From contig OZ231126.1 of assembly GCA_965153355.1 (NCBI GenBank), positions 37,510,001-37,574,000 of the forward strand: a stretch of DNA of 64,000 nucleotides, in the 5' to 3' direction. The notes beneath the pieces were generated by a model. It saw only the letters and a list, made by a program, of their open reading frames with translations. It did not search any database and was not told the origin of the DNA. Shown here in pieces: positions 1 to 61,104 of the stretch; position 1 is the stretch's first letter, and every line of letters begins with the position of its first letter. Both the position numbers and the translations under genes were made by a program. This stretch comes from Flaccisagitta enflata. Taxonomy: Eukaryota.

Positions 1-34
1 AAGCGGGAGTGACAGGAGTGTCGGTGGGAGTGGA

Positions 35-3000
35 ATGGTCATTATGGTTGGTGATGGCGGAGGTGACGGTGGAGACGGTGGTAGTGATTCACACGTCTCC
101 CATTTTCTCTCTCCAACCAAGACGCAGTTGCAGAAACATTCATCAACTAAAGCCAAAAGTAACGGCAGTAATGGTGGAGGTGACAGCGTCTTTGGAAGTG
201 TTGGAGGTGATGACGGAGGAGGTGATTGCCGAGCCAAAATCGAAGCATCATCAAAACAACCCCGTCAACAACAGCAACATCAGGATATCTGCGACGACAT
301 CAAAGAATCCATCTATTCCCCTCTTCCGACGACTAAAGAAAAGTCGTCATTTGAATATTCTCTTACATTCGTCAATAGCAAAGTAAAGAGAGGATTTCAC
401 GAGTCTGCGATGGAACCTCTCAATTCTCATTCAGCTTCTCTTTCATCTCATCCTCTACCCATCGCGCATAAAGGTCGAAGTGACAGCGTCGTAGGTGGGA
501 GTGATGATAGACATGATGATAGTGATGTCCATCTTATTACATCGGCGAAGCAAAAGAAGAAAGCATTCGTCAATAGAGAAGTAAAGAGAGGTTTGGAGAT
601 AGAGAAAACAAAAGGAGGATTTCACGAGTCTGCGATGGAACCTCCCAATTCTCATTCAACTTCTCTCTCATCTCATCTTCCTCCCAATGATTATTCGACG
701 ACGATGACGACGACGACGTCGCCGTTGGATCCATCAACTTCATCTTCATCTAGTTCATCGTTCATCTCGATGTCAAAGGCGCGTAAAGGTCGTAGTGACA
801 GCGTCAGAGGTGGAGGGGACAATATCAGAGGTGGAGGTGACAGCGTCCAAGGTGGAGGAACTGATGGTGGTGATAGTGATGTTCATCTTATCACTTCGAC
901 GAAGCAAAAGAAGAAAGCAATCGTCAAAATGAAAAAAGTGGAAAGGAAAAAGAAACAGAATGAAAGAATTCACGAGTCTGCGATGAAATCTTTCTCTTCT
1001 TCACCTTCTCTGCCATTTCATCTTCCGTCGTCAGTAAAGAAGAAAGCGACGTCGGACTCCTTATTGGTCTCCTTTTCTCCTGGCAAGTCGTCTTTGGCCT
1101 CTTCTCCTGGCAAGTCGTCTTTGGCCTCTTCTCCTGGCAAGTCGTCTTTGGCCTCTTCTCCTGGCAAGTCGTCTTTGGCCTCTTCTCCTGGCAAGTCGTC
1201 TTTGGCCTCTTCTCCTGGCAAGTCGTTTTTGGCCTTTTCTCCTGGCAAGTCGTCTTTGGCCTCTTCTCCTGGCAAGTCGTCTTTGGCCTCTACTGGCAAG
1301 TCGTCTCTGGCCTCTTCTACTGGCAAGTCGTCTTTGGCCTCTACTGGCAAGTCGTCTCTGGCCTCTTCTACTGGCAAGTCGTCTTTGGCCTCTTCTCCTG
1401 GCAAGTCGTCTCTGGCCTCTTTGACTGGCAAGTCGTCTCTGGCCTCTTCTCCTGGCAAGTTGTCTCTGGCCTCTTCTCCTGGCAAGTCGTCTCTGGCCTC
1501 TTCTCCTGGCAAGTCGTCTCTGGCCTCTTCTACTGGCAAGTCGTCTCTGGCCTCTTCTACTGGCAAGTCGTCTTTGGCCTCTTCTACTGGCAAGTCGTCT
1601 CTGGCCTCTTCTACTGGCAAGTCTTTGGCCTTATCTCCATGGGACATGAGAAAGTCCCACTCGTTTTCTCCTTGGAACAATTCTGTGGCGTATGCCTACG
1701 CCAATTTGCCATCTGCTCTCGTGGCTTTATTCAAGTTGCCATCTGCTTTCGTGGCTTTATTCAAGTTGCCATCTGCTGTTGTGGCTTTTCAAGTGCCACT
1801 TTCCGTTGTGGATTTTTGCGTGGCACCTTCCGTTGTGGTTTCTCAAGTGCCACCTTCCGTTGTGGAATCTCTATTGCCATCTCCCCTCGTGCCATCTCCT
1901 CTCACGTCTCAACAATCTCCATCTTCTTCCCGTTTTTCCGGAGGGACCCAACAGGGTTTTCATGTTTTTCAAAGCAGTGAGAATCATATTTCTACTCCGA
2001 CTTCGTGTTTGGAAGAGGAAGGGCAGGAGGAAGAGGAGGAGGAGGAGAAGAAAAGTCGAGATAGATCTTCGATATTTCCTTCTTTTTATCGTCATTCTCC
2101 CTCCAACAATCAATCCCGCGTTAAGCCTCTACTTTCGATGTTCGATGAAGAGGAAGGGGAGGAAAAGGAGGAAAAAGAGGAAGAGGAGAAAAGTAATCGG
2201 AGATCATCGGCATTCGTCTTTGTTCATCGGCATCGTGACCGTCATCCTTCCCTCAACAACATTCAACCCTTCATTCAGCCTCATCTGTCTTCGATGATCA
2301 AGGAAGAGGAAGGGGAGGAGGAGGAGGAGAAAGACATTAAAAAGTGTCACCAGTCCTTCGATCGAAAGAGCAATCCAAAAACGAGAAAGAGAAAGAAAAG
2401 AAATTCTCTCAATCGTCCTCCACATCGTTTCGAGTTTCAGCGCAAGAAAAAGAGAAAGAAAGCGCGGAAATCTCAATCATTACGGCGCCGTCGCGATCGA
2501 TGCCATTCCCGCGGACTTTCACGCCGCTTCTACGGGCGCATTGGGCGCCATTTCTTCCCTCGTGATCGATGCCACACTCACGGACGTTCGCGCGGTTTCT
2601 ACGGGCGCATAGGGCGCCACTTCCATGAGCGTTTACGACGCCGCTGCAACGGACGTTTACGCTATTTCTACGGACGCAGAAGGCGCCGCTTCTCCCGTCG
2701 TGTACGACGCAGCTTTGGACGTTCACGCCGCTTCTACGGGCGCACACGGCGCCAATTCTTCCATCGTGATCGACGCCGTTTCTATGGACGGTCACGCCGC
2801 TTCTATGGGCGCAAAGAGCGCCGCTTCTTCCGTCGTGTTCGACGCCGCTATGGACGTTCACGACATCTTCACGGGCGTGCGAAACGCCATCCTCACGGGC
2901 GAATGAATCGCCATCCTCACGGGCGAATGAAACGCCATCCTCACGGGCGTGTGAAACGCCATCCTCACGGGCGTGTGAAACGCCATCTGCGCCGATGCCG

Positions 3001-3160
3001 TCTCACAAACGGACGGCGCTCTTCTCATCTCCGCCATCGAAAGAAGATGGACATATTCAGCAGTCGCCTCATCATTCATCAGTGGATGTTTCGTTCATTC
3101 GTCGTTCATCACTCGGTGAATTCATTTGTTCATGGGTCGATAAATCTGCTCCTCATCTAA
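35..3160 (+). CDS. Long low-complexity ORF inside the LTR element (copy 1, 5'-truncated by the window edge). Gly/Ser-rich modules, SSPGKSSLA repeats, acidic Glu tracts, Lys/Arg patch, and an Arg-rich C-terminus (RRFYGR and HPHGRVKR repeats).
   Basis: 1041 stop-free codons. The second copy extends the same frame upstream (12210-13130). No CCHC knuckle, protease, RT or integrase motif is visible. Confidence 0.55.
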   Translation: MVIMVGDGGGDGGDGGSDSHVSHFLSPTKTQLQKHSSTKAKSNGSNGGGDSVFGSVGGDDGGGDCRAKIEASSKQPRQQQQHQDICDDIKESIYSPLPTTKEKSSFEYSLTFVNSKVKRGFHESAMEPLNSHSASLSSHPLPIAHKGRSDSVVGGSDDRHDDSDVHLITSAKQKKKAFVNREVKRGLEIEKTKGGFHESAMEPPNSHSTSLSSHLPPNDYSTTMTTTTSPLDPSTSSSSSSSFISMSKARKGRSDSVRGGGDNIRGGGDSVQGGGTDGGDSDVHLITSTKQKKKAIVKMKKVERKKKQNERIHESAMKSFSSSPSLPFHLPSSVKKKATSDSLLVSFSPGKSSLASSPGKSSLASSPGKSSLASSPGKSSLASSPGKSSLASSPGKSFLAFSPGKSSLASSPGKSSLASTGKSSLASSTGKSSLASTGKSSLASSTGKSSLASSPGKSSLASLTGKSSLASSPGKLSLASSPGKSSLASSPGKSSLASSTGKSSLASSTGKSSLASSTGKSSLASSTGKSLALSPWDMRKSHSFSPWNNSVAYAYANLPSALVALFKLPSAFVALFKLPSAVVAFQVPLSVVDFCVAPSVVVSQVPPSVVESLLPSPLVPSPLTSQQSPSSSRFSGGTQQGFHVFQSSENHISTPTSCLEEEGQEEEEEEEKKSRDRSSIFPSFYRHSPSNNQSRVKPLLSMFDEEEGEEKEEKEEEEKSNRRSSAFVFVHRHRDRHPSLNNIQPFIQPHLSSMIKEEEGEEEEEKDIKKCHQSFDRKSNPKTRKRKKRNSLNRPPHRFEFQRKKKRKKARKSQSLRRRRDRCHSRGLSRRFYGRIGRHFFPRDRCHTHGRSRGFYGRIGRHFHERLRRRCNGRLRYFYGRRRRRFSRRVRRSFGRSRRFYGRTRRQFFHRDRRRFYGRSRRFYGRKERRFFRRVRRRYGRSRHLHGRAKRHPHGRMNRHPHGRMKRHPHGRVKRHPHGRVKRHLRRCRLTNGRRSSHLRHRKKMDIFSSRLIIHQWMFRSFVVHHSVNSFVHGSINLLLI
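1074..1625 (+). repeat. 27-bp coding minisatellite (tctcctggcaagtcgtctttggcctct), with a few 24-bp units
   Basis: About 20 tandem units. Length variants are multiples of 3, and the antisense frame (EEAKDDLPG) is also open. Confidence 0.95.
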
Positions 3161-5245
3161 CGCCAACTACGCTTCGCGTCGTAGAAGATGTCAATTTAAG
3201 TGATATTGATTGTCTGTTCTTCAACTTACTCTTCCTTAGATATTTCTCGATAGATTCTCTCATTGTTTATTTTTCGTCGGTAAAAGGCCGAGATCACGTG
3301 AAAGAATGAAAAGAATAGGAAGGAAAATAAATGCCGTTTGAGTACAACGGACTTCTGTTACAATCGTCGTCTTTGCTCCTGTGAATAGTGTCGTCGATTT
3401 CCATGTTATATTTGTTGTTTTAAAGATGGACAACACTTAGCTACGCTCTTGCTACACTCGTTTCCCTCTTTAATCTCCGCCGATTCTCCCTACGTCTGCC
3501 AACTGCGCTTCTATGTAAAACATTGGTTCCGTTTAGTGGGGGTTGAATACGTGGGGGGGGGGGTGTTCCGTGATTGGAATGGTCAGGAATTATTAAGCAA
3601 TTCATGACATTTTATTTCCGTCATTCACTTAACCTTTTTTTTCAGCTTTTGAAAAATGATCAAGAATATTTTAGTATTATTGATATTTATTTTTTCATCA
3701 GCTATTTTTAGCTTTCTGAAATTTGCCTAAGGCTATTTGAAAGTCACGGGCCTTTATATTTCTGATTGCTCTTTCTTTTTGAGCGTGGCAATATTTGTTT
3801 TCTGAGTAAACAGTGTTTACATTTGATAACAAATTACGAGCTGAAATGGATAAGTAGATTTCAGTTCTTTGTTTCTATCTGTCTGTTTGAATAAGGATTA
3901 GATATTTCATTTCGGATTTATGTTTATATTTCCCTCCTGTTGCATTGCATATGTAACTTTTCCTTTCCGTAAGCTGTTAGGTTTACTTTTGATTATGGAT
4001 TTCGAGCTGAAATGGATAAGTAGATTTCAGTTCTTTATTTCTTTCCTTTTTTTTTCCCGCTTAATTCACGGAGAAAAATCGTTCACATTCTTACATTCAG
4101 AAATTACGTTTGTTGCATTGTACATGTAACTTTTCCTTTTGGTAAGTTTTGAGGCTTACACTTAGTTACGAATTTGATTTAGCTTTCTGATTCGATTAAG
4201 TTTTCTGATTTGATTTAGCCTTCTGATTTGATATAGCTTTCTGAATTCAGTCTAAGACTAGAAGGTCACTGGCGTTTATAATTCTGATTGCTTCTTTTCC
4301 TTTTGAGTGCGTGACATGATTTTGAAAAGTCAACGCCAATATTCTTTTGTTTGCTGAAATGGATAAGCTGATTTCAGTGTTATGTTTCCATTGAAAATGG
4401 GTTTATAGATTTTTCGCGTTTGCTTCAGAGAAAAGCGTATGAATCTTATTTTGTATTTCCATAATTTGTCATATAGAATTGACATTACGTTGCCTAAATG
4501 TACGGCAATTTTTCAAGGCCTAAGTGAATGGCATTTGTTTCATTGTTCGCGCCTATATGGATGGCGTCTTTTCTTTCATGTATTAGCTCGCCAAAATGAA
4601 CGGCATTTCTGTGATTATTTTGTCGCCTTAGTGAGTGACATTTCCAGTTTGTTCAGCATTGAAGTATTGCATACTTTCGATGTTCTCCAGCCTATAGCAT
4701 GGCATTTTCACGAATTCCTCCGGCCTATAGTAAGGCTTCATTCCTAATTTTCTCCGGCCTATAGCATGGCATTCATTCCTAATTTTCTCCGGCCTATAGC
4801 ATGGCATTTTTCTTTGGCCTAAAGTATGGCATTGTTTCTGAATTTCCTAGCAGCCTTAGTATGGCATTCCTTTTGATTTCCTCGGCCTGAAGTATGGCAT
4901 TTTCTCCATTATTCTTATGCCTAAGAGTATGGGTTTTTCATTCATTCTTGCACATAGCATTCTATGCATGTATCCTGATTCAGATTTCAGTTGAGAAAAT
5001 GAATTTTGGTCCATCTTTTTCTAGTTGCCCTAAATGTAGCCTGAAATTGAGAGAATCTTTTTCTATTTTGGCATTCATTTTAGATTGGCATTGGCATTTT
5101 GTTTGTGCTTAGCCCTTTTTTCCGTGCCTAGCATTTTGGTCACGCTTAGCATTTTGCCCCATTATGGCTCATTTTGGAAATGATTTTCCGGTCATTTTAG
5201 ACATGCTGGGTGTGTTGGATATGTTTGACATCTCCAAGTGGGGGG

Positions 5246-5775
5246 TGTGCGCGCTCCTACGCGCTTTTGCGATGCTCTTTTTGATTTGATGCGTTTAACT
5301 CACCTACCTTCCGTTTAACTTACCCCTGGTGAGACGCCTTGTCATTAATTTGATACTCGACCAAAATGGAAACAGATTTGCTCTTTAAGGACGGCAGAGA
5401 TTTTCTTTATAAGAACATACGATCTATGGCTAGTCTATTTGTCTCTTTCGTGTCCATTTCTTTCTATTATGCGTCTATTTTGTGTCAATGGTAAAGAAAT
5501 TGGCAAGTTTCTAATGGTTCTCTCATTTTCCCCATTTCAGATGATAAATGATACATGAATTTTATCATTGTTTACCTCGATACCCCTAAGTCAGGACCGA
5601 GTTGAAGTTTTGCAGGTATAAGCATTTCCAAGGCTTGTAATACTGATACACATTGATTCTTGTAAACGATTGCTTGTTTATAAATAATTCATTGTTTATA
5701 ATAAAACATTTTTGCAGACCCAGTAACCGTCTCTGCATTTACTACTACTGCCGAAGAAAGGGGGGATCGCGGACA
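5246..5775 (+). mobile_element. 3' LTR of copy 1 of the LTR element
   Basis: Runs TGTGCGCG...CGCGGACA, is preceded by the purine tract aagtgggggg, and matches 11804-12328 and 18244-18761. Confidence 0.85.
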
Positions 5776-6175
5776 ATCAGTCTGTTGGTCCATCAGTGCA
5801 AGTCATAAAGAGGGAAATGAGCGTTTTGTGTACTTTTGGCGTATGTTTGTGTATATGTGGGGTATTAAGGTGTGGATGGCGGTTGGACGCCCCTGCCCAC
5901 CCGTCCGCAACGATATTGTGACCCCACGTCACATGCTGTGTATGAGTCTGTGTTGGGAGGGAGTTGGGTGGGGCATTGGGTGTGAATGGGGGTTGCCCAC
6001 CCATTTGCAACAATATTGTGACCCAGCGTCACTGTTTTTTTTCATTCTATCATGAATTCCATTTCCATTCTTTTTTTCTTACCTTTTCTTCTTTTTTTTT
6101 TCTTCATTTCTTTCTTTTTTTTCTCTTTCTTTCTCTTTTTTTTTCTATCTTTCTTTCTTTCTTTCTTTCTTTTTT

Positions 6176-6222
<47 letters not shown>

Positions 6223-7473
6223 CTCTTTCTTTCTTTCTTTCTTTCTTTGTTTTTTTCTATAATTCGCTTTTCCTCTCTTTCCTTGTTTTTCTTTCTTTCT
6301 TTCTTTCTCTTTTCCTCTCTTTTCTTCTTTCTTTCTTTCTTTCTTTCTCTTTTTTTTTCTTTCTTTCTTTTTTTTCTTTTTTCCCTTTCTCATTTCTTCC
6401 TTCCTTCCTTCCTTCCTTTCTTCCTTCCTTCCTTCTTCTTTTCTACTTATTTCTTTCTTCCTTTCTTCCTTCCTTCCTTTCTTTCTTTCTTTCTCTCTAA
6501 AAGAAAAAAGTGTAGGAAGCGTTGAAAACGCGTAATGCGAACGCCTTAGCAACCAAAAACGTTGGATGCGATGCGTAACGCGATGCGCGAGCTGCCGGGA
6601 AACGCGAATGCAAACGCTTTTGAAAATCCCGCGCATCCTTAGCCCTGTTTTGCATCTTGGCAAGCTCAAATGCCCCATCAACTTTCAAAATGTCATTTTT
6701 GAAAATTTTCTAAAATTTTAGGCATCTTAGCTACTGGTAGACATTAATTCATATACATCAATTTACACTTTTCTATTGGAGATTGATAAGAAAATAAATA
6801 TATGTCTCTGGAACTAGCCGATGGTAAAATTGCCAAGTCATTATCTGCCTTTGTTAAAGTGTGACATTCTTCTAAAAACAAAAGATAATGAGATCAGAAT
6901 TTCTCCTTATTATCACCTGATTTGTGTCCACTGAAAATACCAAATTTGCATAGGGAATCCAAAAATATAAAAACCAAGAATATAAGACTCTTTTGAATTA
7001 GTATATCTACAGTTATATGTTTTAGAAAACGCAAATCTTGTTATTTCTAAGATACACTTATCAAATTTTTATTACACAAGATTGTCCTATTTTTGTTCCA
7101 AATTATGTTCCAGAGGATGTTTATGATCATTCTGGACAGTGACACCAAATCTGGCTTTGTGTTAGCTAGTTGTACTATTTGCTTGCTAACAAAAATCATT
7201 TGTTGCATTTGAATTAATAATTAATTTGATTATTACAAACCAGAAAAAATATATTAAAAAGGGCATGAATAAAAAGTTCTATTCGACTGTGCAACATGTC
7301 TTATTCGTTCGCCACTTTTTCCCTTCCTTCGAATTCGTCCCAGTTGCTTTTTGTCTGTCTGTGCACTTGTCTATTCATTGTCTTTCTCGTCCCAATATTT
7401 GCTCAATTTGTCTGTCTGTCTGTCTGTCTGTCTGCTTTTGTTTTTCTGTCTGTCAGCCTATCTGCATCTCTCG

Positions 7474-7571
<98 letters not shown>

Positions 7572-7928
7572 TTTTCCTCAAGGAAGTGTTTATAGAATGA
7601 TTCAATTAATTTATGGATCAAAAAAATTCTCTCAATCAAAGTCAACAAATGTTTTTCACAATTCAAAATTGGAGTGTTAAATGACTCTGAATTGTAATTG
7701 TTAATTTTTTGTGTGTGCGTGTAATATGTCTGTGAGGGTCCACAAGGCCAGCTTCCACATTTTTCAGTTTGGATACATAGAGGGATGTTGTTCCACTTGC
7801 GATGCCATAAAAATGATCACATTTGTGCATATGCAAGAGCTATCAAATCTGCTATCTAGAGCGACTTTTCGTTCACTTAATACCTTTCACAACTATCATT
7901 CTAAACGAGCTAGATTAAGTAATAATAT

Positions 7929-7932
<4 letters not shown>

Positions 7933-7984
<52 letters not shown>

Positions 7985-9005
7985 CGAGAGATGCAGATAG
8001 GCTGACAGACAGAAAAACAAAAGCAGACAGACAGACAGACAGACAGACAAATTGAGCAAATATTGGGACGAGAAAGACAATGAATAGACAAGTGCACAGA
8101 CAGACAAAAAGCAACTGGGACGAATTCGAAGGAAGGGAAAAAGTGGCGAACGAATAAGACATGTTGCACAGTCGAATAGAACTTTTTATTCATGCCCTTT
8201 TTAATATATTTTTTCTGGTTTGTAATAATCAAATTAATTATTAATTCAAATGCAACAAATGATTTTTGTTAGCAAGCAAATAGTACAACTAGCTAACACA
8301 AAGCCAGATTTGGTGTGACTGTCCAGAATGATCATAAACGTCCTCTGGAACATAATTTGCAGCAAAAATAGGACAATCTTGTGTAATAAAAATTTGATAA
8401 GTGTATCTTAGAAATAACAAGATTTGCGTTTTCTAAAACATATAACTGTAGATATACTAATTCAAAAGAGTCTTATATTCTTGGTTTTTATATTTTTGGA
8501 TTCCCTATGCAAATTTGGTATTTTCAGTGGACACAAATCAGGTGATAATAAGGAGAAATTCTGATCTCATTATCTTTTGTTTTTAGAAGAATGTCACACT
8601 TTAACAAAGGCAGATAATGACTTGGCAATTTTACCATCGGCTAGTTCCAGAGACATATATTTATTTTCTTATCAATCTCCAATAGAAAAGTGTAAATTGA
8701 TGTATATGAATTAATGTCTACCAGTAGCTAAGATGCCTAAAATTTTAGAAAATTTTCAAAAATGACATTTTGAAAGTTGATGGGGCATTTGAGCTTGCCA
8801 AGATGCAAAACAGGGCTAAGGATGCGCGGGATTTTCAACAGCGTTCGCGTTCGCGTTTTCCAGCAGCTCGCGCATCGCGTTACGCATCGCATCCAACGTT
8901 TTTGGTTGCTAACGCGTTCGCGTTACGCGTTTTCAACGCTTCCTACACTTTTTTCTTTTAGAGAGAAAGAAAGAAAGAAAGGAAGGAAGGAAGAAAGGAA
9001 AAGAG
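7933..9005 (-). repeat. Inverted copy of ~6465-7530, forming the arm of a ~2.5-kb quasi-palindrome
   Basis: Reverse-complement match throughout with scattered substitutions. Mirrored ORFs 6497..6688(-)/8770..8961(+) and 7226(+)/8232(-). Confidence 0.95.
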
Positions 9006-10402
9006 AAAGAAAGCGCGGAAATCTCAATCATTACGGCACCGTCGCGATCGATGCCATTCCCGCGGACTTTCACGCCGCTTCTACGGGCGCAGTGGGCGCC
9101 ATTTCTTCCCTCGTGATCGATGCCACACTCACGGACGTTCGCGCGGTTTCTACGGGCGCATAGGGCGCCACTTCTTCCATGAGCGTTTACGACGCCGCTG
9201 CAACGGACGTTTACGCTATTTCTACGGGCGCAGAAGGCGCCGCTTCTCCCGTCGTGTACGACGCCGCTTCGGACGTTCACGCCGCTTCTACGGGCGCACA
9301 CGGCGCCACTTCTTCCATCGTGATCGACGCCGTTCCTATGGACGGTCACGCCACTTCTATGGGCGCAAAGAGCGCCGCTTCTTCCGTTGTGTTCGACGCC
9401 GCTATGGACGTTCACGACATCTTCACGGGCGTGCGAAACGCCATCCTCACGGGCGAGTGAATCGCCATCCTCACGGGCGTGTGAAACGCCATCCTCACGG
9501 GCGTGTGAAACGCCATCCTTACGGGCGTGTGAAACGCCATCTGCGCCGATGCCGTCTCACAAACGGACGGCGCTCTTCTCATCTCCGCCATCGAAAGAAG
9601 ATGGACATATTCAGCAGTCGCCTCATCATTCATCAGTGGATGTTTCGTTCATTCGTCGTTCATCACTCGGTGAATTCATTTGTTCATGGGTCGATAAATC
9701 TGCTCCTCATCTAACGCCAACTACGCTTCGCGTCGTAGAAGATGTCAATTTAAGTGATATTGATTGTCTGTTCTTCAACTTACTCTTCCTTAGATATTTC
9801 TCGATAGATTCTCTCATTGTTTATTTTTCGTCGGTAAAAGGCCGAGATCACGTGAAAGAATGAAAAGAATAGGAAGGAAAATAAATGCCGTTTGAGTACA
9901 ACGGACTTCTGTTACAATCGTCGTCTTTGCTCCTGTGAATAGTGTCGTCGATTTCCATGTTATATTTGTTGTTTTAAAGATGGACAACACTTAGCTACGC
10001 TCTTGCTACACTCGTTTCCCTCTTTAATCTCCGCCGATTCTCCCTACGTCTGCCAACTGCGCTTCTATGTAAAACATTGGTTCCGTTTAGTGGGGGTTGA
10101 ATACGTGGGGGGGGGGGTGTTCCGTGATTGGAATGGTCAGGAATTATTAAGCAATTCATGACATTTTATTTCCGTCATTCACTTAACCTTTTTTTTCAGC
10201 TTTTGAAAAATGATCAAGAATATTTTAGTATTATTGATATTTATTTTTTCATCAGCTATTTTTAGCTTTCTGAAATTTGCCTAAGGCTATTTGAAAGTCA
10301 CGGGCCTTTATATTTCTGATTGCTCTTTCTTTTTGAGCGTGGCAATATTTGTTTTCTGAGTAAACAGTGTTTACATTTGATAACAAATTACGAGCTGAAA
10401 TG
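9001..10402 (+). repeat. Third copy of segment ~2449-3849 (Arg-rich ORF end plus 3' flank)
   Basis: Direct match from aagagaaagaaagcgcggaaatc to cgagctgaaatgg. Confidence 0.95.
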
Positions 10403-11803
10403 GTGCCTCAACCGATATTCTCCGTCAAGTTCATCTTGATTAGTCCCTTCCAGATTAACTCGTTCATCGCGCGGTTCATGGATCAGCAGTTCTTTCCTCC
10501 ATCCATCTCCACGCCATGTGTTGCTATCAAAGACACCACCATCATTAGGAAAGTCTCCGGCAATGCGCCAATATGGTCTATCGCTGTGTCCCCAGCTGTG
10601 TTCCCAGTCAATTCGCCAACTTGGTCCATCGCCGCGCCATTTAGAAAAGCCGAGCCACCCTTGCATATCTTTGCGACGACTTGGTACATCCCTGCGACGG
10701 CTTGGTTCATCGCGAAACAAATTTGGTTCGTCGAGGCGCTGATCTGGTCCATTTTGGAGCCAATTCGGTCCATTCCTAGAGGAGGAAGAGGATGCTTTTG
10801 AAGAGGAAGTCGGGGAAAGAGAAGTGGGCGAAGCGGAAGACGCGATGGAAGAGGAAGCTGGTGCGATAGTTGAGGAGGAAGAGGACGATGAGTGGTTCGG
10901 AATGGAGCGCCGTAGTTTTTTGAGCAACAATGAAGCAGAGAAGGGAGCAGCCCCAAATGCAAATCTTGGGGATACGACGAGGAAAAAACAAAAAAAGAAA
11001 ATCCGATGTTGGAGCCGCTCCGCCGACATATTTTCTCATTTAATTCGACAGATCGTTCTATCTTTAATTTTAAACGATGTAGCGTTGAGGAGAGAGGATG
11101 AAATATTCTCCATTCCCAAGTAAGCATATGACATCGAGTGGATTGAACCAAGGATGATTTTTGTAAGATGGGACTGTTAGCGGGATCTCCGTCGCCTCGT
11201 TCGTTACTTGTGGCTGCGTTCATGAAGTGAAATTTTATATTTGTGGTATGACACGGGATAATCTAGGGCGGAATTTCTTATTCATGCAAAATTAAAGATT
11301 TTTTTGTGATTGCAGATTTTTTTCTGATATTTTTGGAAAAGGCTATTCTATACCTTAGGTTAAAACATATTTCGCATCAGGGATAAGGATGCGATCCGGG
11401 ATGCGAATGCGAACGCACAGGATGCGCATGATTTAGCTAAACGCGAATAGGGATGCGGATGCATTTAATGAAATATGGGAGTGGATGCGAACGCGCATCC
11501 TTACCAAAGCGTTCGCATCAATGCGCTTTTGCATTTGCCTTGTCCTAAACCTTTAAACCCAAAACATGCAGACATTGAAAAAAATGACATTCCTACACGT
11601 TTTATTCTCCTAGCTCTTAATTTTTTCTTTCTTTCTCTTGTCCATCCATCCCTTTGTTCGTTGGTTTTATAAGATGGTGCCGATGGTGCGACCCGGCCCT
11701 GTTAACTTGTTTTAGTTGCCGAAACACATCTCTATAAGAGGCTTTGTCTGTCCATTCATCCGTTGGTCCGGTGGTCTATTGGTCCGTTGGTCTACTTCAC
11801 TTG

Positions 11804-14800
11804 TGTGCGCGCTCCTACGCGCTTTTGCGATGCTCTTTTTGATTTGATGCGTTTAACTCACCTACCTTCCGTTTAACTTACCCCTGGTGAGACGCCTTGT
11901 CATTAATTTGATACTCGACCAAAATGGAAACAGATTTGCTCTTTAAGGACGGGAGAGATTTTCTTTATAAGAACATACGATCTATGGCTAGTCTATTTCT
12001 CTTTTGTGTCCATTTCCTTCTATTATGCGTCTATTTTGCGTCAATGGTAAAGAAATTGGCAAGTTTCTAATGATTCTCTCATTTTCCCCATTTCAGATGA
12101 TAAATGATACATGAATTTTATCATTGTTTACCTCGATACCCCTAAGTCAGGACCGAGTTGAAGTTTTTGCAGGTATAAGCATTTCCAAGGCTTGTAATAT
12201 TGATACATATTGATTCTTGTAAACAATTGCTTGTTTATAAATAATTCATTGTTTATAATAAAACATTTTTGCAGACCCAGCGTCTCTTGCATTTACTACT
12301 ACTGCCCAGAGAAGGGGGATCGCGGACAGGCGCTTCAACTCGATGGCTTCGCTGACGTCGGCTCCGGTCCGGGTGGTGATGTCATTGGCAGCGACACGGA
12401 AAACAGGGCGTGCGTCAGCAGCGGCGTCAATGCGTTGGTGGACCGTCTCCAGCTTCCGGCGCTCCATCAACAACTTTGTGAAGCGTTCTTCTCTGCATCA
12501 AGGACGCCGTCGGCGGAGAATATTTTATGTCTTCAACAATGTCACATCGCGGCGAAAAATGCGTATAACGCCGCAATTTCAGCTGCATATCGAACTTTGC
12601 CAAGTGAATCAATCAGTTTCTTTGTGACCACCGTGTATCCATGTTGCGTCCTCATCGAAGAATCGCGCCGTTATTTGGAAACTCTACTGCCCATGATGCG
12701 TTTATTGCCAACTCCGACTTCCGGAAAGACTGAAACCCCAAAGGCGGGAATCGACGGGAGTGATAGAGAAGGAGAAGGTGAGGGTGTTGACATCATTGGA
12801 AGTGGTAGTAGAGGCGGCCGAGATAGAGGGTTGGAAGGTGGTGGCGGTTGTAATGATACTCACATTTGGCGAAGACCAACTATCTCTTCTCCCATTCCAA
12901 CGCCAAAGGCGTGTTTGACACAACCTCCATCCATCGCCGTCGATGGACTCGACTGCGAAAGAGTAAGTGATGGTGGTGGTGGCGTTTTAGGTGGCGGTGG
13001 AATTGAAAGTGGAGGTGATAGTTTTGCAGTTGTTTCATCCCCGTCTCCAACGATCAATACTGATTCCCCAAAGTCGACTTCTCCCGCTGAAAGGAAAAGC
13101 GGGAGTGACAGGAGTGTCGGTGGGAGTGGAATGGTCATTATGGTTGGTGATGGCGGAGGTGACGGTGGAGACGGTGGTAGTGATTCACACGTCTCCCATT
13201 TTCTCTCTCCAACCAAGACGCAGTTGCAGAAACATTCATCAACTAAAGCCAAAAGTAACGGCAGTAATGGTGGAGGTGACAGCGTCTTTGTAAGGGTTGG
13301 AGGTGATGACGGAGGAGGTGATTGCCGAGACAAAATCGAAGCATCATCAGTGCATCCTCGTCAACAACAGCAACATCAGGATATCTGCGACGACATCAAA
13401 GAATCCATCTATTCCCCTCTTCCGACGACTAAAGAAAAGTCGTCATTTGAATATTCTCTTACATTCGTCAATAGCAAAGTAAAGAGAGGATTTCACGAGT
13501 CTGCGATGGAACCTCTCAATTCTCATTCAGCTTCTCTTTCATCTCATCCTCTACCCATCGCGCATAAAGGTCGAAGTGACAGCGTCGTAGGTGGGAGTGA
13601 TGATAGACATGATGATAGTGATGTCCATCTTATTACATCGGCGAAGCAAAAGAAGAAAGCATTCGTCAATAGAGAAGTAAAGAGAGGTTTGGAGATAGAG
13701 AAAACAAAAGGAGGATTTCACGAGTCTGCGATGGAACCTCCCAATTCTCATTCAACTTCTCTCTCATCTCATCTTCCTCCCAATGATTATTCGACGACGA
13801 TGACGACGACGACGTCGCCGTTGGATCCATCAACTTCATCTTCATCTAGTTCATCGTCCATCTCGATGTCAAAGGCGCGTAAAGGTCGTAGTGACAGCGT
13901 CAGAGGTGGAGGGGACAATATCAGAGGTGGAGGTGACAGCGTCCAAGGTGGAGGAACTGATGGTGGTGATAGTGATGTTCATCTTATCACTTCGACGAAG
14001 CAAAAGAAGAAAGCAATCGTCAAAATGAAAAAAGTGGAAAGGAAAAAGAAACAGAATGAAAGAATTCACGAGTCTGCGATGAAATCTTTCTCTTCTTCAC
14101 CTTCTCTGCCATTTCATCTTCCGTCGTCAGTAAAGAAGAAAGCGACGTCGGACTCCTTATTGGTCTCCTTTTCTCCTGGCAAGTCGTCTTTGGCCTCTTC
14201 TCCTGGCAAGTCGTCTTTGGCCTCTTCTCCTGCCAAGTCGTCTTTGGCCTCTTCTCCTGGCAAGTCGTCTTTGGCCTCTTCTCCTGGCAAGTCGTCTTTA
14301 TCTTCTTCTCCTGGTATGTAGTTTTTGTCCTTTTCTCCTCTTAAGTCGTCTTCAGCCTCTTCTCCTGTCAAGTCGTCTTTGGCCTGCTCTACTGACAAGT
14401 AGTCTCTGGCCTCTTCTGCTGGTGAGTCGTCTTTGGCCTCTTTGACAGCCAAGTCGTCTCTGGCCTCTTCTACTGGCAAGTCGTCTTTGCCCTCTTCTTC
14501 TGGCAAGTCGTCTCTGGCCTCTTTGACTGGCAAGTCGTCTCTGTCATCTTCTCCTGGCTGGGTGTCTCTGGCCTCTTCTCCTGGCAAGTCGTCTCAAGCC
14601 TCTTTGACTGGCATGTCGTCTCTGGCCTCTTCTACTGGGGCAAGTCGTCTTTGGCCTCTTCTACTGGCAAGTCGTCTCTGGCCTTATCTCGGATCAAGTC
14701 TTTGGCCTTATCTCCATGGGACATGAGAAAGTCCCACTCGTTTTCTCCTTGGAACAATTCTGTGGCGTATGCCTACGCCAATTTGCCATCTGCTCTCGTG

Positions 14801-17800
14801 GCTTTATTCAAGTTGCCATCTGCTTTCGTGGCTTTATTCAAGTTGCCATCTGCTGTTGTGGCTTTTCAAGTGCCACTTTCCGTTGTGGATTTTTGTGTGC
14901 CACTTTCCGTTGTGGCTTTTCAAGTGCCACCTTCCGTTGTGAAATCTCTCTTCTCATCTCCCCTCGTGCCATCTCCTCTTACGTCTCAACAATCTCCATC
15001 CTCTTCCCGTTTTTCCGGAGGGACCCAATGGGGTTTTCAAGATTTTCAAAGCAGTGAGAATCATATTTCTACTCCGACTTCGTGTTTGGAAGAGGAAGGG
15101 CAGGAGGAAGAGGAGGAGGAGGAGAAGAAAAGTCGAGATAGATCTTCGATATTTCCTTCTTTTTATCGACATTCTCCCTCCAACCGTCAGTCCCGCGTTA
15201 AGCCTCTACCTTCGATGTTCGATGAAGAGGAAAGGGAGGAAAAGGAGGAAAAGGAGGAGAAAGAGGAAGAGGAGAAAAGTAATCGGAGATCATCGACATT
15301 CGTCTTTGTTCATCGGCATCGTGACCGTCATCCTTCCCTCAACAACATTCAACCCTTCATTCAGCCTCATCTGTCTTCGATGATCAAGGAAGAAAAGACG
15401 TTAAAGTATCATGATCCTTGATCGAAGGCGATCAAAAGCGAAAAGAAAATTCCTATGATCGTCCTCATGGTTTGAGTTCTGGCGCCAAAAGAAGTGATCT
15501 CGGTGTTCTTTGTTTACCGTCATGATCGATGCCATTGGACTTTCACGTGCTTCTCTGCATTGGTAGCCATTTTCTTCCTCGTGATCTGATCTTACATCGG
15601 ACTGGTCGCGGGACTATCTCTGCGTGCGCCAGCGCCAGCTAACCCATAGCGTTACAAGCGCTGTTTGCTCAACACGAGCTGGAAGCCTGCTACTCCAGTG
15701 TTATGACGCCGCATGGTGTCGCGCCAAAGCCTCTGCAACGCCCACCGGCGCGCTGCGCTCATTGATGCGACGCCGTTCTGCGGGCGGTCGCCGCTTCTAT
15801 GAGCAAAAGAGGCGGCCAAACTTCTTCCGTTATGTTCGTGTAGCTATGGGCGTTCTGAAAAACATCTTCGAAGATGAAGCGCCATCTATCTGAAGTGATG
15901 AATGCAGCCATCCTCTCTGGGCGTGAAGCGCCATCCTCATGGCGTGAGCGCCGTCCCCTTCTGATGTGAAACGCCATCTGCGCCGATGCCGTCTCTCACC
16001 GCAAAGCGGATGGCGTACTATAATCTCATTATCGAAGAAGATGGACATATTAGCGATCAATATCTCATGTTCATCAGTGGATGTTTCGTTCGATGGTTGT
16101 CTTTCGTTGAGTTCGTTTGTTCTCGTCGGTCGATGAAATCTGCTCATCATCTAGCCAACTCATTAGTGTGGATGTCAATTGGGATGTGGTTGTCTGTTCT
16201 TCAAGCACTCTTCATAGATATTTCTCAGGTGATTCTCTCGTTGTTTATTTTAGTGGTGTTAAGATCACGTGAATGAAGATGGGAAGGAAGATAATCCCCG
16301 TTGATTGTGGATACAATCGTCGTCTTGCTCCTATGAATAGTGTCGTCGATTTCCATGTTATATTTTGTTTAAAGATGGACCAGCATGGCCTAAAATATTC
16401 TTATAGTTCTCTTTAATCTCCATGATTCTCATGTCACCAGCACAAGCTACTGTAAGAAACATTGGTTCACGTTTAGTGGGGTTGAATCGGGGGGGTGTTC
16501 CGTGATTGGAATGGTCAGGTGCAAGCAATTCATGACATTTTATTTCCAAATCATTCACTTAACCTTTTTTTTCAGCTTTTGAAAAATGATCAAGAATATT
16601 TTAGTATTATTGATATTTATTTTTTCATCAGCTATTTTTAGCTTTCTGAAATTTGCCTAAGGCTATTTGAAAGTCACGGGCCTTTATATTTCTGATTGCT
16701 CTTTCTTTTTGAGCGTGGCAATATTTGTTTTCTGAGTAAACAGTGTTTACATTTGATAACAAATTACGAGCTGAAATGGATAAGTAGATTTCAGTTCTTT
16801 GTTTCTATCTGTCTGTTTGAATAAGGATTAGATATTTCATTTCGGATTTATGTTTATATTTCCCTCCTGTTGCATTGCATATGTAACTTTTCCTTTCCGT
16901 AAGCTGTTAGGTTTACTTTTGATTATGGATTTCGAGCTGAAATGGATAAGTAGATTTCAGTTCTTTATTTCTTTCCTTTTTTTTTCCCGCTTAATTCACG
17001 GAGAAAAATCGTTCACATTCTTACATTCAGAAATTACGTTTGTTGCATTGTACATGTAACTTTTCCTTTTGGTAAGTTTTGAGGCTTACACTTAGTTACG
17101 AATTTGATTTAGCTTTCTGATTCGATTAAGTTTTCTGATTTGATTTAGCCTTCTGATTTGATATAGCTTTCTGAATTCAGTCTAAGACTAGAAGGTCACT
17201 GGCGTTTATAATTCTGATTGCTTCTTTTCCTTTTGAGTGCGTGACATGATTTTGAAAAGTCAACGCCAATATTCTTTTGTTTGCTGAAATGGATAAGCTG
17301 ATTTCAGTGTTATGTTTCCATTGAAAATGGGTTTATAGATTTTTCGCGTTTGCTTCAGAGAAAAGCGTATGAATCTTATTTTGTATTTCCATAATTTGTC
17401 ATATAGAATTGACATTACGTTGCCTAAATGTACGGCAATTTTTCAAGGCCTAAGTGAATGGCATTTGTTTCATTGTTCGCGCCTATATGGATGGCGTCTT
17501 TTCTTTCATGTATTAGCTCGCCAAAATGAACGGCATTTCTGTGATTATTTTGTCGCCTTAGTGAGTGACATTTCCAGTTTGTTCAGCATTGAAGTATTGC
17601 ATACTTTCGATGTTCTCCAGCCTATAGCATGGCATTTTCACGAATTCCTCCGGCCTATAGTAAGGCTTCATTCCTAATTTTCTCCGGCCTATAGCATGGC
17701 ATTCATTCCTAATTTTCTCCTTCATTCCTAATTTTCTCCGGCCTATAGCATGGCATTCATTCCTAATTTTCTCCGGCCTATAGCATGGCATTCTTCTTTG

Positions 17801-18761
17801 GCCTAAAGTATGGCATTGTTTCTGAATTTCCTAGCAGCCTTAGTATGGCATTCCTTTTGATTTCCTCGGCCTGAAGTATGGCATTTTCTCCATTATTCTT
17901 ATGCCTAAGAGTATGGGTTTTTCATTCATTCTTGCACATAGCATTCTATGCATGTATCCTGATTCAGATTTCAGTTGAGAAAATGAATTTTGGTCCATCT
18001 CTTTTCTAGTTGCCCTAAATGTAGCCTGAAATTGAGAGAATCTTTTTCTATTTTGGCATTCATTTTAGATTGGCATTTTGTTTGTGCTTAGCCTTTTTGT
18101 TTGTGCTTAGCCCTTTTTTCCGTGCCTAGCATTTTGGTCACGCTTAGCATTTTGCCCCATTATGGCTCATTTTGGAAATGATTTTCCGGTCATTTTAGAC
18201 ATGCTGGGTGTGTTGGATATGTTTGACATCTCCAAGTGGGGGGTGTGCGCGCTCCTACGCGCTTTTGCGATGCTCTTTTTGATTTGATGCGTTTAACTCA
18301 CCTACCTTCCGTTTAACTTACCCCTGGTGAGACGCCTTGTCATTAATTTGATACTCGACCAAAATGGAAACAGATTTGCTCTTTAAGGACGGCAGAGATT
18401 TTCTTTATAAGAACATACGATCTATGGCTAGTCTATTTGTCTCTTTCGTGTCCATTTCTTTCTATTATGCGTCTATTTTGTGTCAATGGTAAAGAAATTG
18501 GCAAGTTTCTAATGGTTCTCTCATTTTCCCCATTTCAGATGATAAATGATACATGAATTTTATCATTGTTACCTCGATACCCCTAAGTCAGGACCGAGTT
18601 GAAGTTTTGCAGGTATAAGCATTTCCAAGGCATACTGATATTGATTCTTGTAAACGATTGCTTGTTTATAATAATTCATTGTTTATAATAAACATTTTTG
18701 CAGACCCAGTAACCGTCTCTGCATTTACTACTACTGCCGAAGAAAGGGGGGATCGCGGACA
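11804..18761 (+). mobile_element. LTR element (~6.96 kb) lacking a recognisable pol
   Basis: Direct repeats 11804-12328 and 18244-18761 with TG..CA ends and a 7/8 terminal inverted repeat. PPT immediately before the 3' LTR, imperfect PBS-like ggcgcttcaac after the 5' LTR. It splits a DINE-like repeat. No clear TSD. Confidence 0.8.
12210..16150 (+). pseudogene. Copy 2 of the long LTR-internal ORF; open 12210-14321, then disrupted by stops and frameshifts
   Basis: Nearly identical to 35..3160 from 13131 to ~14300, then degraded. First in-frame ATG is at 12693. The region upstream looks helical (LHQQLCEAFF...EESRRYLETLL). Confidence 0.55.
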
Positions 18762-20276
18762 ATCAGTCTGTTGGTCCATCAGTGCAAGTCATAAAGAGGG
18801 AAATGAGCGTTTTGTGTACTTTTGGCGTATGTTTGTGTATATGTGGGGTATTAAGGTGTGGATGGCGGTTGGACGCCCCTGCCCACCCGTCCGCAACGAT
18901 ATTGTGACCCCACGTCACATGCTGTGTATGAGTCTGTGTTGGGAGGGAGTTGGGTGGGGCATTGGGTGTGAATGGGGGTTGCCATTTGCAACAATATTGT
19001 GACCCAGCGTCACTGTTTTTTCATTCTATCATGAATTCCATTTCCATTCTTTTTTTCTTATTTTCCTTTTTTCTTCTTTTTTTTTTTTTTCTCTTCCTTT
19101 TTCTCTTCTTTCTTCTTTCTCTTTCTTTCTCTCTTTCTTTCTTTCTTTCTTTCTTTATTTTTCTATAATTCGCTTTCCTCTCTTTCTTCCTATTTTTTCT
19201 TTTCTTTTTTTTCATTTTCTTCCTTCTTCTTTTCTTCCTTTTTTTCTTTCTTTCTTTCTTCCTTTCTTCCTTCCTTCCTTTCTTTCTTTCTTTCTCTCTA
19301 AAAGAAAAAAGTGTAGGAAGCGTTGAAAACGCGTAATGCGAACGCCTTAGCAACCAAAAACGTTGGATGCGATGCGTAACGCGATGCGCGAGCTGCCGGG
19401 AAACGCGAATGCAAACGCTTTTGAAAATCCCGCGCATCCTTAGCCCTGTTTTGCATCTTGGCAAGCTCAAATGCCCCATCAACTTTCAAAATGTCATTTT
19501 TGAAAATTTTCTAAAATTTTAGGCATCTTAGCTACTGGTAGACATTAATTCATATACATCAATTTACACTTTTCTATTGGAGATTGATAAGAAAATAAAT
19601 ATATGTCTCTGGAACTAGCCGATGGTAAAATTGCCAAGTCATTATCTGCCTTTGTTAAAGTGTGACATTCTTCTAAAAACAAAAGATAATGAGATCAGAA
19701 TTTCTCCTTATTATCACCTGATTTGTGTCCACTGAAAATACCAAATTTGCATAGGGAATCCAAAAATATAAAAACCAAGAATATAAGACTCTTTTGAATT
19801 AGTATATCTACAGTTATATGTTTTAGAAAACGCAAATCTTGTTATTTCTAAGATACACTTATCAAATTTTTATTACACAAGATTGTCCTATTTTTGTTCC
19901 AAATTATGTTCCAGAGGATGTTTATGATCATTCTGGACAGTGACACCAAATCTGGCTTTGTGTTAGCTAGTTGTACTATTTGCTTGCTAACAAAAATCAT
20001 TTGTTGCATTTGAATTAATAATTAATTTGATTATTACAAACCAGAAAAAATATATTAAAAAGGGCATGAATAAAAAGTTCTATTCGACTGTGCAACATGT
20101 CTTATTCGTTCGCCACTTTTTCCCTTCCTTCGAATTCGTCCCAGTTGCTTTTTGTCTGTCTGTGCACTTGTCTATTCATTGTCTTTCTCGTCCCAATATT
20201 TGCTCAATTTGTCTGTCTGTCTGTCTGTCTGTCTGCTTTTGTTTTTCTGTCTGTCAGCCTATCTGCATCTCTCGCT

Positions 20277-20315
<39 letters not shown>

Positions 20316-21115
20316 TTTTTCCTCAAGGAAGTGTTTATAGAATGATTCAATTAATTTATGGATCAAAAAAATTCTCTCAATCAAAGTCAACAAATGTTTT
20401 TCACAATTCAAAATTGGAGTGTTAAATGACTCTGAATTGTAATTGTTAATTTTTTGTGTGTGCGTGTAATATGTCTGTGAGGGTCCACAAGGCCAGCTTC
20501 CACATTTTTCAGTTTGGATACATAGAGGGATGTTGTTCCACTTGCGATGCCATAAAAATGATCACATTTGTGCATATGCAAGAGCTATCAAATCTGCTAT
20601 CTAGAGCGACTTTTCGTTCACTTAATACCTTTCACAACTATCATTCTAAACGAGCTAGATTAAGTAATAATATGTAGTGATTGTCGCGGACGAGTGGGCA
20701 GGGGCTTCCTCCACACACACAAACTTACACAATCTAAACAGCAACATCTCTATCATGCGCTTTTACACTTTACAAACAACATCCTCAGGCGCTAAAGCAC
20801 CTCAAAAGGAAATACAGCCGCAAGTATGCTTGGTTCAATAGACAGACCATATAGACACGCTACCGTGAGACTAGTTAAAAACGCGTGAAACAATTGGTTA
20901 AGAAGCACCATGAAGGGACCCTGGTCGTTCAGGCTGCATAGATAATCGTTGTGAAAATAGATACTTCATCAAAGTTATTTTACCAAAATTACATGAATGT
21001 AAAAGAGGTGATTTACCCTTAAGTATAAAATTTGTACGTATCGTTGGTTATACGTACCAAGGCGCATGAGACAAAAGTGGATGAGTCGGATACGAAATCT
21101 TGGTCTTTTCATACA

Positions 21116-25772: not shown

Positions 25773-26159
25773 GCGGGAATTTCTCATTGCAAAAATTTCT
25801 GTTATGGATTCGTAACCAAGTGACTTCCGTAATTCACGCGTACTTTCCCAACGGTGAAAACCAAAAATCTTTCTTATGCAATCATTGCGTCTTAGCGTAT
25901 AGTAAGTAGCGTCCTCAAATTGTCAGTTGATACGTCCATTCTTCCTTTTATCAATTTGTCCATAATTCAGAATAACAGATACACGCGTCACAAGTCACAA
26001 GTCACAAGTCACAAGTCATGTGTGGATAGTGATGAAGAAGACTAGATGGGCATTTTGAATAGGGCGGAGGTCCGCTCTTTCGCGAATCGCAAAAAAATCG
26101 AGACCAACCGTCAAACTAAGTGACCGTCTGCTTAGAAGAAAAAGAATAAAAAACTGTAA

Positions 26160-26186
26160 AGAAAGAGAGAAAGAAAGAAAGAAAGT

Positions 26187-26274
<88 letters not shown>

Positions 26275-26275
26275 G

Positions 26276-26325
<50 letters not shown>

Positions 26326-26594
26326 CAAGAACGAAAGCAAGAACAAAAGCAAGAAAGAAAGAACGAAAGAAAGATAGAAAAAAAGAAGGAAAGAAAGACA
26401 GATGGAAAGAAAGAAAGAAAGAAAGACAGACGGAAAGAAAGACAGAAAGAAAGACGGCAAGAAGGACGGGAAGAAAGACGGAAAGAAAGACGGAAAGAAA
26501 GACGGAAAGAAAGACGGAAAGAAAGACGGAAAGAAAGACAGAAGACAGAAAGAAAGAAAGACAGACAGAAAGACAGAAAGACAGAAAGACAGAC

Positions 26595-26677
<83 letters not shown>

Positions 26678-26678
26678 A
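26160..26678. repeat. (GAAA)n / (GAAAGACG)-type compound microsatellite
   Basis: Direct inspection. Confidence 0.95.
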
Positions 26679-27300
26679 ATGAAGTTATGGGAGATAAAAG
26701 AATGAAACGAAAAGAAAAAGAAAAAAAAAGGTAAAGAAGCGGTACGAGGGAAGAAAAGGAAAAAAAATTTAGCACACATGAAGAATAACATTTTATAGAG
26801 GAAAAAAGTCAATCCGCATTCTGAACTAATCGCCAAAGTGAAAAAATTGACTGCTTCACTTTGCTTCTCATTCTGCTTAGCCTCTCTGTACGCGACCGCA
26901 CGTAGACTGCTTAACAGATGACTGCTTAAGTTTGCGTTACATAAAATGGGTATAGAAACTTGCTGTTGGAGATTTTAGAGGGGAAAGTTGTCATACCGAA
27001 CTGGTTAAATCGGAGAGGAGACTCAGTTCAATTTTTTTTCAAGATTTTTTTTTCATTTTGTGAACGATGAAGATACAAGGAGTTGAAGGTCGCGCAAGGT
27101 CTCAATCTTTCACAAATTGCAACTTGAGTGTTTTTGCCAACTTACATGAAGATACATCAAGGTTCACAATATGACCTTCCCTAGTGCAGCGTGTTAACAT
27201 AAGTTTTGGACTTTGGCTTGGGACTATGATTTTCGAATTCCTCGTGATATGTTGGCGAAGTAGTCGATGGTAAGGCGGCACCAAACTGTAAAAGTAACTA

Positions 27301-29085: not shown

Positions 29086-30298
29086 TAAGCCTCCGTAGTC
29101 CGCAAATAAAAGTATCTAAAAGCTGGTTTTCCCACTTTTCAACTTGATGACGCCAGACCGAGGGACTGACCGATTGACGGACGGACAAAGCCTCTTTTAG
29201 AATTGCATGACTGCAACTAAAAAAATGTTACTTGATCACTAGGGCAGGAGCAGTGAGGCCAAAGACCGCAAAAACCAAAAAAAAAGTAAAGTGCGATGGA
29301 CGGACGGACCAACGGACGGACCGACGGACCGACAAAGCGGGGTGTAGAGTCGCGTAGCACGCAACTAAAAAGTTTGACAGACCTGCGGACAGATGGACCA
29401 AGGGACCAAGGGACCAACAGACAAATAGGTTGTAGAGTCGCGTACACGACTTAAAAAGACAAAGAGATTGAATAACTAAAACAGACAGGCAATCAACCAG
29501 ACAGCATGAGATGCACACACAGAAGACCATGCACTGAACAAGGCTGAAAAAGCAAATGGTGACCGACCGACAAACCGACCAACCCAGATAGCAATTAATA
29601 GAGTTGTGTAGCATGCAACAAAAAACAGTCTCCCATTTACAGGTCCGGTCAAAGCTCAAAAAGCTAAAATCTCAGTGCACTGTGTTCCCCAAAATGAAAA
29701 TTTGGGTGCCAACTTAAAAAAATCTTAATTTCCTACTTACAAAGGTTATCCAGAATCTAAAAAAGAGCTAACCGATAATATTTGACGTCCCGGATCCAAT
29801 GGTGACGCCCGCAGGCGTGCAGCCATAACAATCTTAGAGGAAAAAGGTGATTTAAATTGATATTCGATGCACATTGCGCCACAAATAATAAATTCAGGCG
29901 CGAAATCAAAAAATTCAGCATTTTTTAGCCATAAAAAAAACACACCACTGAAAATTTCATAGTTGATAGTTTTTGATATGCCAGTATTGTACTAATAGCA
30001 ATATCCGCAGGTGCGTAGAACCTACGGTTTCTGCGATACAGACAAGCAAAGTCAGATTTAACAATTTCCGAATTAAGGGGACAAAGAGATTGATTATAAA
30101 AGCATTGTTTTGTAGTATTCACTATGCTGAATCCAAATATGTTTTTTTTTTTTTCAATCAAAACTGAAGGGAAGTCGCTAAACAAAATCAATAATTTTTT
30201 TCAAAAAACACTTTTTTTCTCCCAAATTTTTTTCTTTTTGCCTAAAAATTGTTTTTGGAAATTCTGCAAGAATTTTAGCGGAAAATAAAAATTATAAA

Positions 30299-61052: not shown

Positions 61053-61104
61053 CCAAATCCTACATAAATTATCCCTTCCTCCCGCCTCCATTTCCTCATC
61101 ACAG

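Follow-up and report, generated by a model that had tools for sequence, protein, structure and literature searches.

What is the unit that two similar repeats bound at positions 11804–18761 of a 64,000-nt stretch of the Flaccisagitta enflata genome (assembly GCA_965153355.1, contig OZ231126.1, positions 37,510,001 to 37,574,000 of the forward strand; hereafter the window)? A first-pass annotation of this DNA had seen a long terminal repeat (LTR) element without pol, whose only cargo was a giant open reading frame (ORF) with a protamine-like basic tail, and had placed it in a non-autonomous family mobilised in trans. Three copies of the unit, here called A, B and C, lie in the window. Copy C, at 11804–18761, is on balance probably an inactivated member of a non-autonomous LTR family that lacks pol and carries an orphan ORF where gag would lie. 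Judging from its relatives and from copy A, the protein of an intact member is predicted to be a lineage-restricted orphan of about 1,300 amino acids (aa), encoded by an intronless ORF that starts 20–47 nt past the 5′ LTR. Read along the forward strand, copy C, a unit of 6.96 kb, is laid out as follows.

11803–12328 (+): 5′ LTR-like repeat (L), with TG at 11804 and CA at 12327–12328
12329–12377 (+): leader, from L to the conserved protein start, holding CTTCAACTCG at 12333–12342
12378–12701 (+): conserved N-terminal four-helix-bundle domain, as placed by relatives and an AlphaFold2 model
12702–14166 (+): Gly/Ser/Asp-rich linker with repeated FHESAMEP, KGRSDS and DSDVHLIT modules
14167–14684 (+): 27-bp tandem array of 19.1 copies (81% matches), with SSPGKSSLA-type units
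14685–15392 (+): hydrophobic LPSA.VA repeats and Glu tracts, readable solely in the shifted frame 14426–15421
15393–16150 (+): decayed Lys/Arg patch and remnant of an Arg-rich tail, 79–88% identical to copies B and A
16151–18233 (+): non-coding internal region with short tandem repeats
18234–18243 (+): polypurine-like run AAGTGGGGGG, abutting the 3′ L; an identical run lies 5′ of the L of copy A
18243–18761 (+): 3′ LTR-like repeat (L), with TG at 18244 and CA at 18760–18761

It is the boundaries of the unit that speak first for a retroelement. The direct repeats of copy C, each of ~525 bp and 94.2% identical over 534 aligned columns, agree with the ~520-bp TG..CA LTRs of the first-pass annotation, and at the ends of L seven of the eight terminal bases are inverted-complementary. 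Inside L, a TATA-like CTTTATAAG at about 11960 is followed by AATAAA at 12257–12262. The polypurine tract that had been reported is likewise in place against the 3′ repeat. Two structural features by which an LTR retrotransposon is recognised are therefore found here, namely terminal repeats with TG..CA and short inverted ends, and a polypurine tract adjoining the 3′ LTR. L occurs three times in the window (5245–5775, 11803–12328 and 18243–18761) and no further. The arrangement could also be described as a mere tandem duplication of 1.08 units, L-X-L; this was rejected as the principal reading on account of the TG..CA ends, the inverted terminal bases, the abutting purine run and the excess word depth of L given below.

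Between these repeats the earlier claim that CCHC knuckle, protease, reverse transcriptase (RT), RNase H and integrase are all missing is upheld by a six-frame motif scan, Pfam and tblastn. The motif C-x2-C-x4-H-x4-C is absent from copies A and C in every reading frame of either strand. Of 14 listed ORFs of at least 50 aa in the 2.1-kb non-coding internal part of copy A, 10 were run through Pfam and showed no pol domain; the lone row was GbpA_D3 at E 0.029, below the Pfam cut-off. A tblastn search for a pol remnant reached a best E of 0.55 when the query was the window's own RT, which belongs to the following ORF.

30182–31624 (+): 5′-truncated RT and RNase H ORF (Pfam RVT_1 9e-11, RT_RNaseH_2 5e-30)

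Does copy C hold the giant frame ascribed to it? The single frame of ~1348 codons that had been read across 11804–18761 dissolves on inspection: the N-terminus of copy C had been stitched to its paralogue copy A at 2–3160, and the striking giant ORF is the product of joining the two. Copy C itself is open from stop to stop over 12204–14321, a frame of 705 aa, and its earliest ATG is indeed the one named earlier, at 12693. In-frame stops stand at 14319–14321 and 14400–14402; near 14638 the alignment to copy A has a 25-bp gap, which shifts the frame; and the Arg-rich tail (15393–16150) is interrupted in all three frames. The start methionine of the relatives aligns to 12348–12350 or 12375–12377 (the alignment is ambiguous), neither of which is ATG in copy C. 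Copy C is a pseudogene rather than an intact giant ORF, a caution for any account of the locus that takes it as the living gene. The modules of the protein that had been listed are all present, in copy A; what is not found at 11804–18761 is the intact frame to hold them. The other two copies, and the flank that A and C have in common, are these.

2–3160 (+): ORF of copy A, 1052 codons, intact and open at the window start; source of the earlier '35-3160'
3161–5244 (+): non-coding internal region of copy A
5245–5775 (+): 3′ L of copy A
8962–10403 (+): copy B, 5′-truncated, with a 250-aa tail ORF at 8962–9714 and 3′ internal DNA
18762–20677 (+): 3′ flank of copy C, co-duplicated with the copy A flank at 5776–7932

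Copy A, which loses its 5′ end at the edge of the window, encodes 18 SSPGKSSLA-like units in an array where 27 bp are repeated 20.7 times, together with Glu tracts, a Lys/Arg patch and a tail of 165 aa that is built of 69/135-bp and 24-bp repeats and is 38% Arg; the protein has an overall isoelectric point of 10.9. Taken together with its relatives, the orphan protein would comprise one or two N-terminal four-helix bundles, a Ser/Gly-rich disordered region with the 9-aa array, acidic tracts and a basic tail. The claimed likeness of this tail to protamine stands as far as the Arg content of copy A goes and fails at the level of family, since Pfam returned no protamine or SNBP family at E<=0.1; the resemblance is one of composition only.

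A frame so rich in repeats invites the suspicion that it is no gene at all, kept open merely by stop-free low-complexity tandem repeats, and in fact the 27-bp array, like the tail repeats, can be read through in several frames on both strands. Against this, when the 645 non-repeat codons of copy A were shuffled, none of 2000 shuffles was stop-free; the base composition of its ORF varies by codon position, unlike that of the neighbouring non-coding 2 kb; and relatives at 28–79% identity (tblastn) conserve both the N-terminal domain and the start. On these grounds the family ORF is, as sequence goes, to be taken as really coding, and with a confident AlphaFold2 model of the N-terminus besides, we regard the suspicion as very improbable indeed.

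Those relatives are few and short. The 705-aa frame of copy C has no protein homologue of near its length, and its shorter homologues are six metagenome fragments, 60–79% identical to the window (tblastn). An exhaustive HMMER search with the relatives' alignment drew eight matches from 1.84 billion representative proteins, all of them of at most 360 aa and none with a pol domain. One of the eight, P0011, is a weak match in several stretches (E 5e-7), to a tandem-repeat protein that looks unrelated; it has no match to the window. Most fragments begin with MDV, at a point that lies 20–47 nt past L in copy C. Four of them (P0001, P0002, P0004 and P0007) carry a second tandem copy of the four-helix domain that is absent in copy C (about 12850–12900), while P0014, the only relative from the tail region, keeps the frame through the Glu and Lys/Arg region at 73% identity. 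For the 1052-aa ORF of copy A there was no tblastn-confirmed relative among metagenome contigs and none in IMG/VR, and a 26-nt pattern from the terminus of L had no exact match among metagenome contigs.

AlphaFold2, given the relatives' alignment, folds the N-terminus into a four-helix bundle (helices 5–23, 26–42, 46–73 and 76–108) with a mean predicted local distance difference test score (pLDDT) of 79.5, every 10-residue block across residues 21–100 lying above 90. Comparison with known proteins gave little. With the frames of copy A (1052 aa) and copy C (705 aa) Pfam reached no family at E<=0.1; six family members gave one row between them (DUF444 at E 0.052, in one of the six). A search of PDB sequences with the orphan protein found nothing below E 0.12, and ESM Atlas no usable match; Foldseek compared the N-terminal model with structures in PDB and BFVD, where nothing reached E<=0.001. 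The highest VIA-align Z was 11.0, to unrelated helical proteins, where helical bundles commonly reach ~13. A predicted complex of two copies of the domain scored 0.00, a result that weighs neither for nor against self-association. With just eight matches among 1.84 billion representative proteins, the orphan domain is a new lineage-restricted fold family.

Is the unit repeated in the genome as an LTR element would be? The stretch is partly present in two source-organism DNA runs and in marine-metagenome runs from several studies. Positions 9750–14080, long repeats left out, were compared with two sets of DNA contigs from the source organism, a polyA RNA run and a metatranscriptome. Summed contig word depth, which here and below is not copy number, was about 120–260 in the flank bins at 10475–11199, 600–7400 in the 5′ part of the ORF and 4900–30000 in L, an order (L far above ORF, ORF above flank) that solo LTRs together with fewer full elements would give. 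As many as seven distinct contigs cover one ORF position (12785). The contigs part exactly at 11803, three from run X4 continuing on the side of the purine run AAGTGGGGGG and two from run X1 into other sequence, and all those that cross from L into the interior differ from copy C by the same 2 bp. Copies also vary in structure, both in-frame (-210, +123) and out-of-frame (-191, -836). The source organism thus seems to carry the element in multiple copies.

There is nevertheless evidence that weighs against the pol-less LTR family, among it the local history of the three copies. Copy A with its downstream DNA (1–7932) is colinear with copy C and its downstream DNA (13097–20677), the identity between them standing at 94–99% for ~2 kb past the 3′ L. 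Since copies A and C have this 3′ flank in common, they are local copies from segmental duplication rather than retrotransposition. The same flank is present a third time, inverted, at 7931–9008 (98.6–98.8% identical to 6450–7527 and 19246–20315), and is there fused to truncated copy B, whose homology over 8995–10403 is 98.8% identical to copy A; this points to a recent complex rearrangement. Segmental duplication and rearrangement therefore account for the three copies, which are not separate insertions; of the independent insertions for which a check had been proposed, the window shows none. Around copy C, the sole complete copy and hence the one to which the test applies, no target-site duplication of 4–6 bp was found, the 5′ flank reading ..CACTT(G) and the 3′ flank ATCAG... 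Nor did the primer-binding site (PBS)-like sequence of the first-pass annotation prove to be of tRNA type: no TGG-type PBS adjoins the 5′ L, the first TGG lying 16 nt downstream, and the window holds no tRNA gene with which to compare it. An autonomous partner with the same L did not come to light, and the window's sole RT fragment (30182–31624) is dissimilar to L. Pfam, PDB sequence, Foldseek and VIA-align searches matched the orphan protein to no Gag or capsid family or fold, and the N-terminal model, a four-helix bundle, matched generic helical bundles only. Codon differences between copies A and C (12 synonymous, 45 non-synonymous) are roughly neutral, which would be expected if copy C is dead. 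In the polyA RNA run, of which ~6% of reads were examined, almost nothing fell on the 5′ 1.7 kb of the ORF: 50 reads were placed, all fitting only partly, with depth in 4 of 30 bins. The few reads lie nearly all on the simple repeat upstream of L. Among the runs listed by the sequencing-run search as containing the stretch, none was an RNA run.

Much of this is what a host multigene family would leave behind. On such an account the ORF encodes a fast-evolving, intronless, disordered basic protein of structural or chromatin type, amplified locally by tandem and by segmental duplication, with L incidental or co-opted as promoter and terminator, and the element never moved. It is in keeping with three copies within 20 kb, one of them truncated, and with a flank duplicated alongside them and in part inverted; with a target-site duplication and a tRNA-type PBS that were looked for and not found; and with a folded N-terminal domain in the relatives that nothing ties to a retroelement protein. 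The identity of A to C is moreover a mosaic, over 99% in the first 1.07 kb and 88% in the tail, which suggests gene conversion among paralogues. What it does not lead one to expect, at an arbitrary duplication boundary, is TG..CA, inverted terminal bases and an abutting purine run; nor does it sit well with an L that exceeds the ORF in word depth by a factor of several to tens, with contigs that diverge exactly at the first base of L, or with an intronless ORF that starts within about 50 nt of L. We therefore hold a host gene family to be a serious but rather unlikely explanation, and the dead, pol-less LTR element to be the probable one. As for the non-autonomous LTR family originally proposed, its LTR-like, pol-less and apparently multi-copy character is retained, while a target-site duplication, a tRNA-type PBS and an autonomous partner were not found.

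An LTR element could also have captured a host gene, the ORF being then a passenger without a role in the element's replication. The same structural evidence serves this account, and a protein without Gag features, with tandem arrays and low-complexity tracts unusual for gag, would be less of a surprise in it. Yet no host paralogue outside LTRs is known, the eight matches among 1.84 billion proteins all being short fragments, and the conserved start directly after the LTR is that of a native first ORF. Capture of this kind seems to us improbable, more so than the host gene family.

If the pol-less LTR family is the right reading, how might such an element have been copied? The unit would spread, or would once have spread, as a non-autonomous LTR retrotransposon, with RT and integrase supplied in trans. 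The orphan protein would act on the element's own RNA, its helical head assembling and its Arg tail binding nucleic acid, a scheme read from its architecture; condensation of nucleic acid and mobilisation in trans are thus what we infer for it. Bolder, and in our judgement doubtful, is the proposal of a living family in a marine eukaryote, in which the orphan protein stands in place of Gag, with a self-assembling head, a Ser-rich, phosphorylatable regulatory spacer and an RNA-condensing Arg tail, in which RT and integrase come from an unrelated autonomous element, and in which complementarity internal to the LTR may prime reverse transcription in place of a tRNA.

That complementarity is a matter of ten nucleotides. 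CTTCAACTCG at 12333–12342, 5 nt past L, is perfectly complementary to 12154–12163 within L, a length reached in 16 of 5000 shuffles. In Tf1 and Tj1, as these are described in the two sources cited, LTR retrotransposons without a tRNA-type PBS prime themselves, the PBS pairing with their own mRNA at its 5′ end (PMC4600332, PMC6934838). Copy C is like them, to the extent of those descriptions, in showing no TGG-type PBS next to the LTR and in having a 10-nt stretch 5 nt past it that is complementary to a site inside it; it is unlike them in that the complementary segment of Tf1 and Tj1 is the mRNA 5′ end (PMC4600332, PMC6934838). A 341-nt metatranscriptome contig, which could be DNA, spans 12022–12359 and begins 130 nt upstream of the 12154 site; if it is RNA, it argues against 12154 being the 5′ end of the transcript. 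The pairing of 12154–12163 with 12333–12342 could be a Tf1-type self-priming site, or chance.

Other features of the window stand apart from this argument. Just upstream of the 5′ L, at 11345–11779, contig word depth rises to about 26000–292000 in both source-organism DNA runs; the part at 11345–11634 is dense in GGATGCG/GCGAACGC palindromic motifs and has the look of a short repeat occurring in great abundance, and 11635–11800 is a simple repeat of GTCC/GGTC type. Between copies B and C, in apparently low-copy DNA, two overlapping minus-strand frames of 215 and 259 codons are open at 10388–11262, and neither has a Pfam family. The RT fragment at 30182–31624 comes from an unrelated LTR retroelement and resembles neither L nor the orphan ORF. 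It is followed by a 284-aa ORF (31650–32501) for which the best Pfam row, Sap1_N at E 0.038, falls short of the cut-off, and the orphan N-terminal domain was found nowhere else in the window, the surroundings of the RT fragment included. Very long simple repeats of TTTC/TTCT, GAAA, CT and GTT/CTT type, at 6085–6498, 19047–19299, 26016–26974 and 62394–63580, yield spurious open frames of 200–370 codons on both strands. An ORF at 61068–61670 has only a sub-threshold ZIP match, within a His/Thr repeat, and the ORFs next to the RT fragment yielded nothing. An Rfam scan of window positions 1–21000 gave no matches.

Where, then, does such an element belong among known systems? The Gly-Arg (GR) boxes of foamy-virus Gag and the basic C-terminal region of Ty1 Gag bind nucleic acid without zinc knuckles, and the orphan protein shares with both a helical N-terminus, an Arg-rich basic C-terminus and the lack of a CCHC motif. 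Its tail is far longer and more Arg-rich than theirs, and a disordered, Ser-rich spacer of ~700 aa parts it from the head. A literature search for Gag without zinc knuckles in LTR elements gave no relevant paper. Maize Bs1 is a pol-less LTR element with transduced pieces of host genes; it resembles the present element in carrying a non-retroviral ORF and differs in that no host progenitor gene is identified for the orphan one.

If the reading is true, this would be an LTR family with a single gene, an orphan whose product joins a folded head to a protamine-like tail, and it would represent either a new route of self-packaging for a parasitic element or a new host gene amplified inside LTRs. 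Coding non-autonomous LTR elements have been described mainly in plants and with a recognisable Gag. The TR-GAG elements of plants have LTRs and a GAG ORF without enzymes (PMC13570524). To the extent of that description, the present element is like them in being LTR-bounded and pol-less, with a single ORF in the gag position and a presumed dependence on enzymes in trans; it is unlike them in an ORF of about 1,300 aa that is mostly low-complexity and has no recognisable GAG domain (Pfam, E<=0.1), in its length of about 7 kb, in a host that occurs in marine-metagenome runs and is not a plant, and in having no known autonomous relative (PMC13570524). Large retrotransposon derivatives (LARDs), in the same source, exceed 4 kb and have a non-coding interior; the 6.96 kb of copy C, its LTRs, its lack of pol and, toward the 3′ end of its interior, a long non-coding stretch holding tandem repeats recall them, but a LARD is defined there as non-coding, and intact members of this family hold a long coding-looking ORF of at least 1052 codons in copy A (PMC13570524). 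Departing from the one in its want of a recognisable GAG and from the other in its coding interior, the element is, on what the source gives of both groups, closest in kind to TR-GAG and LARDs.

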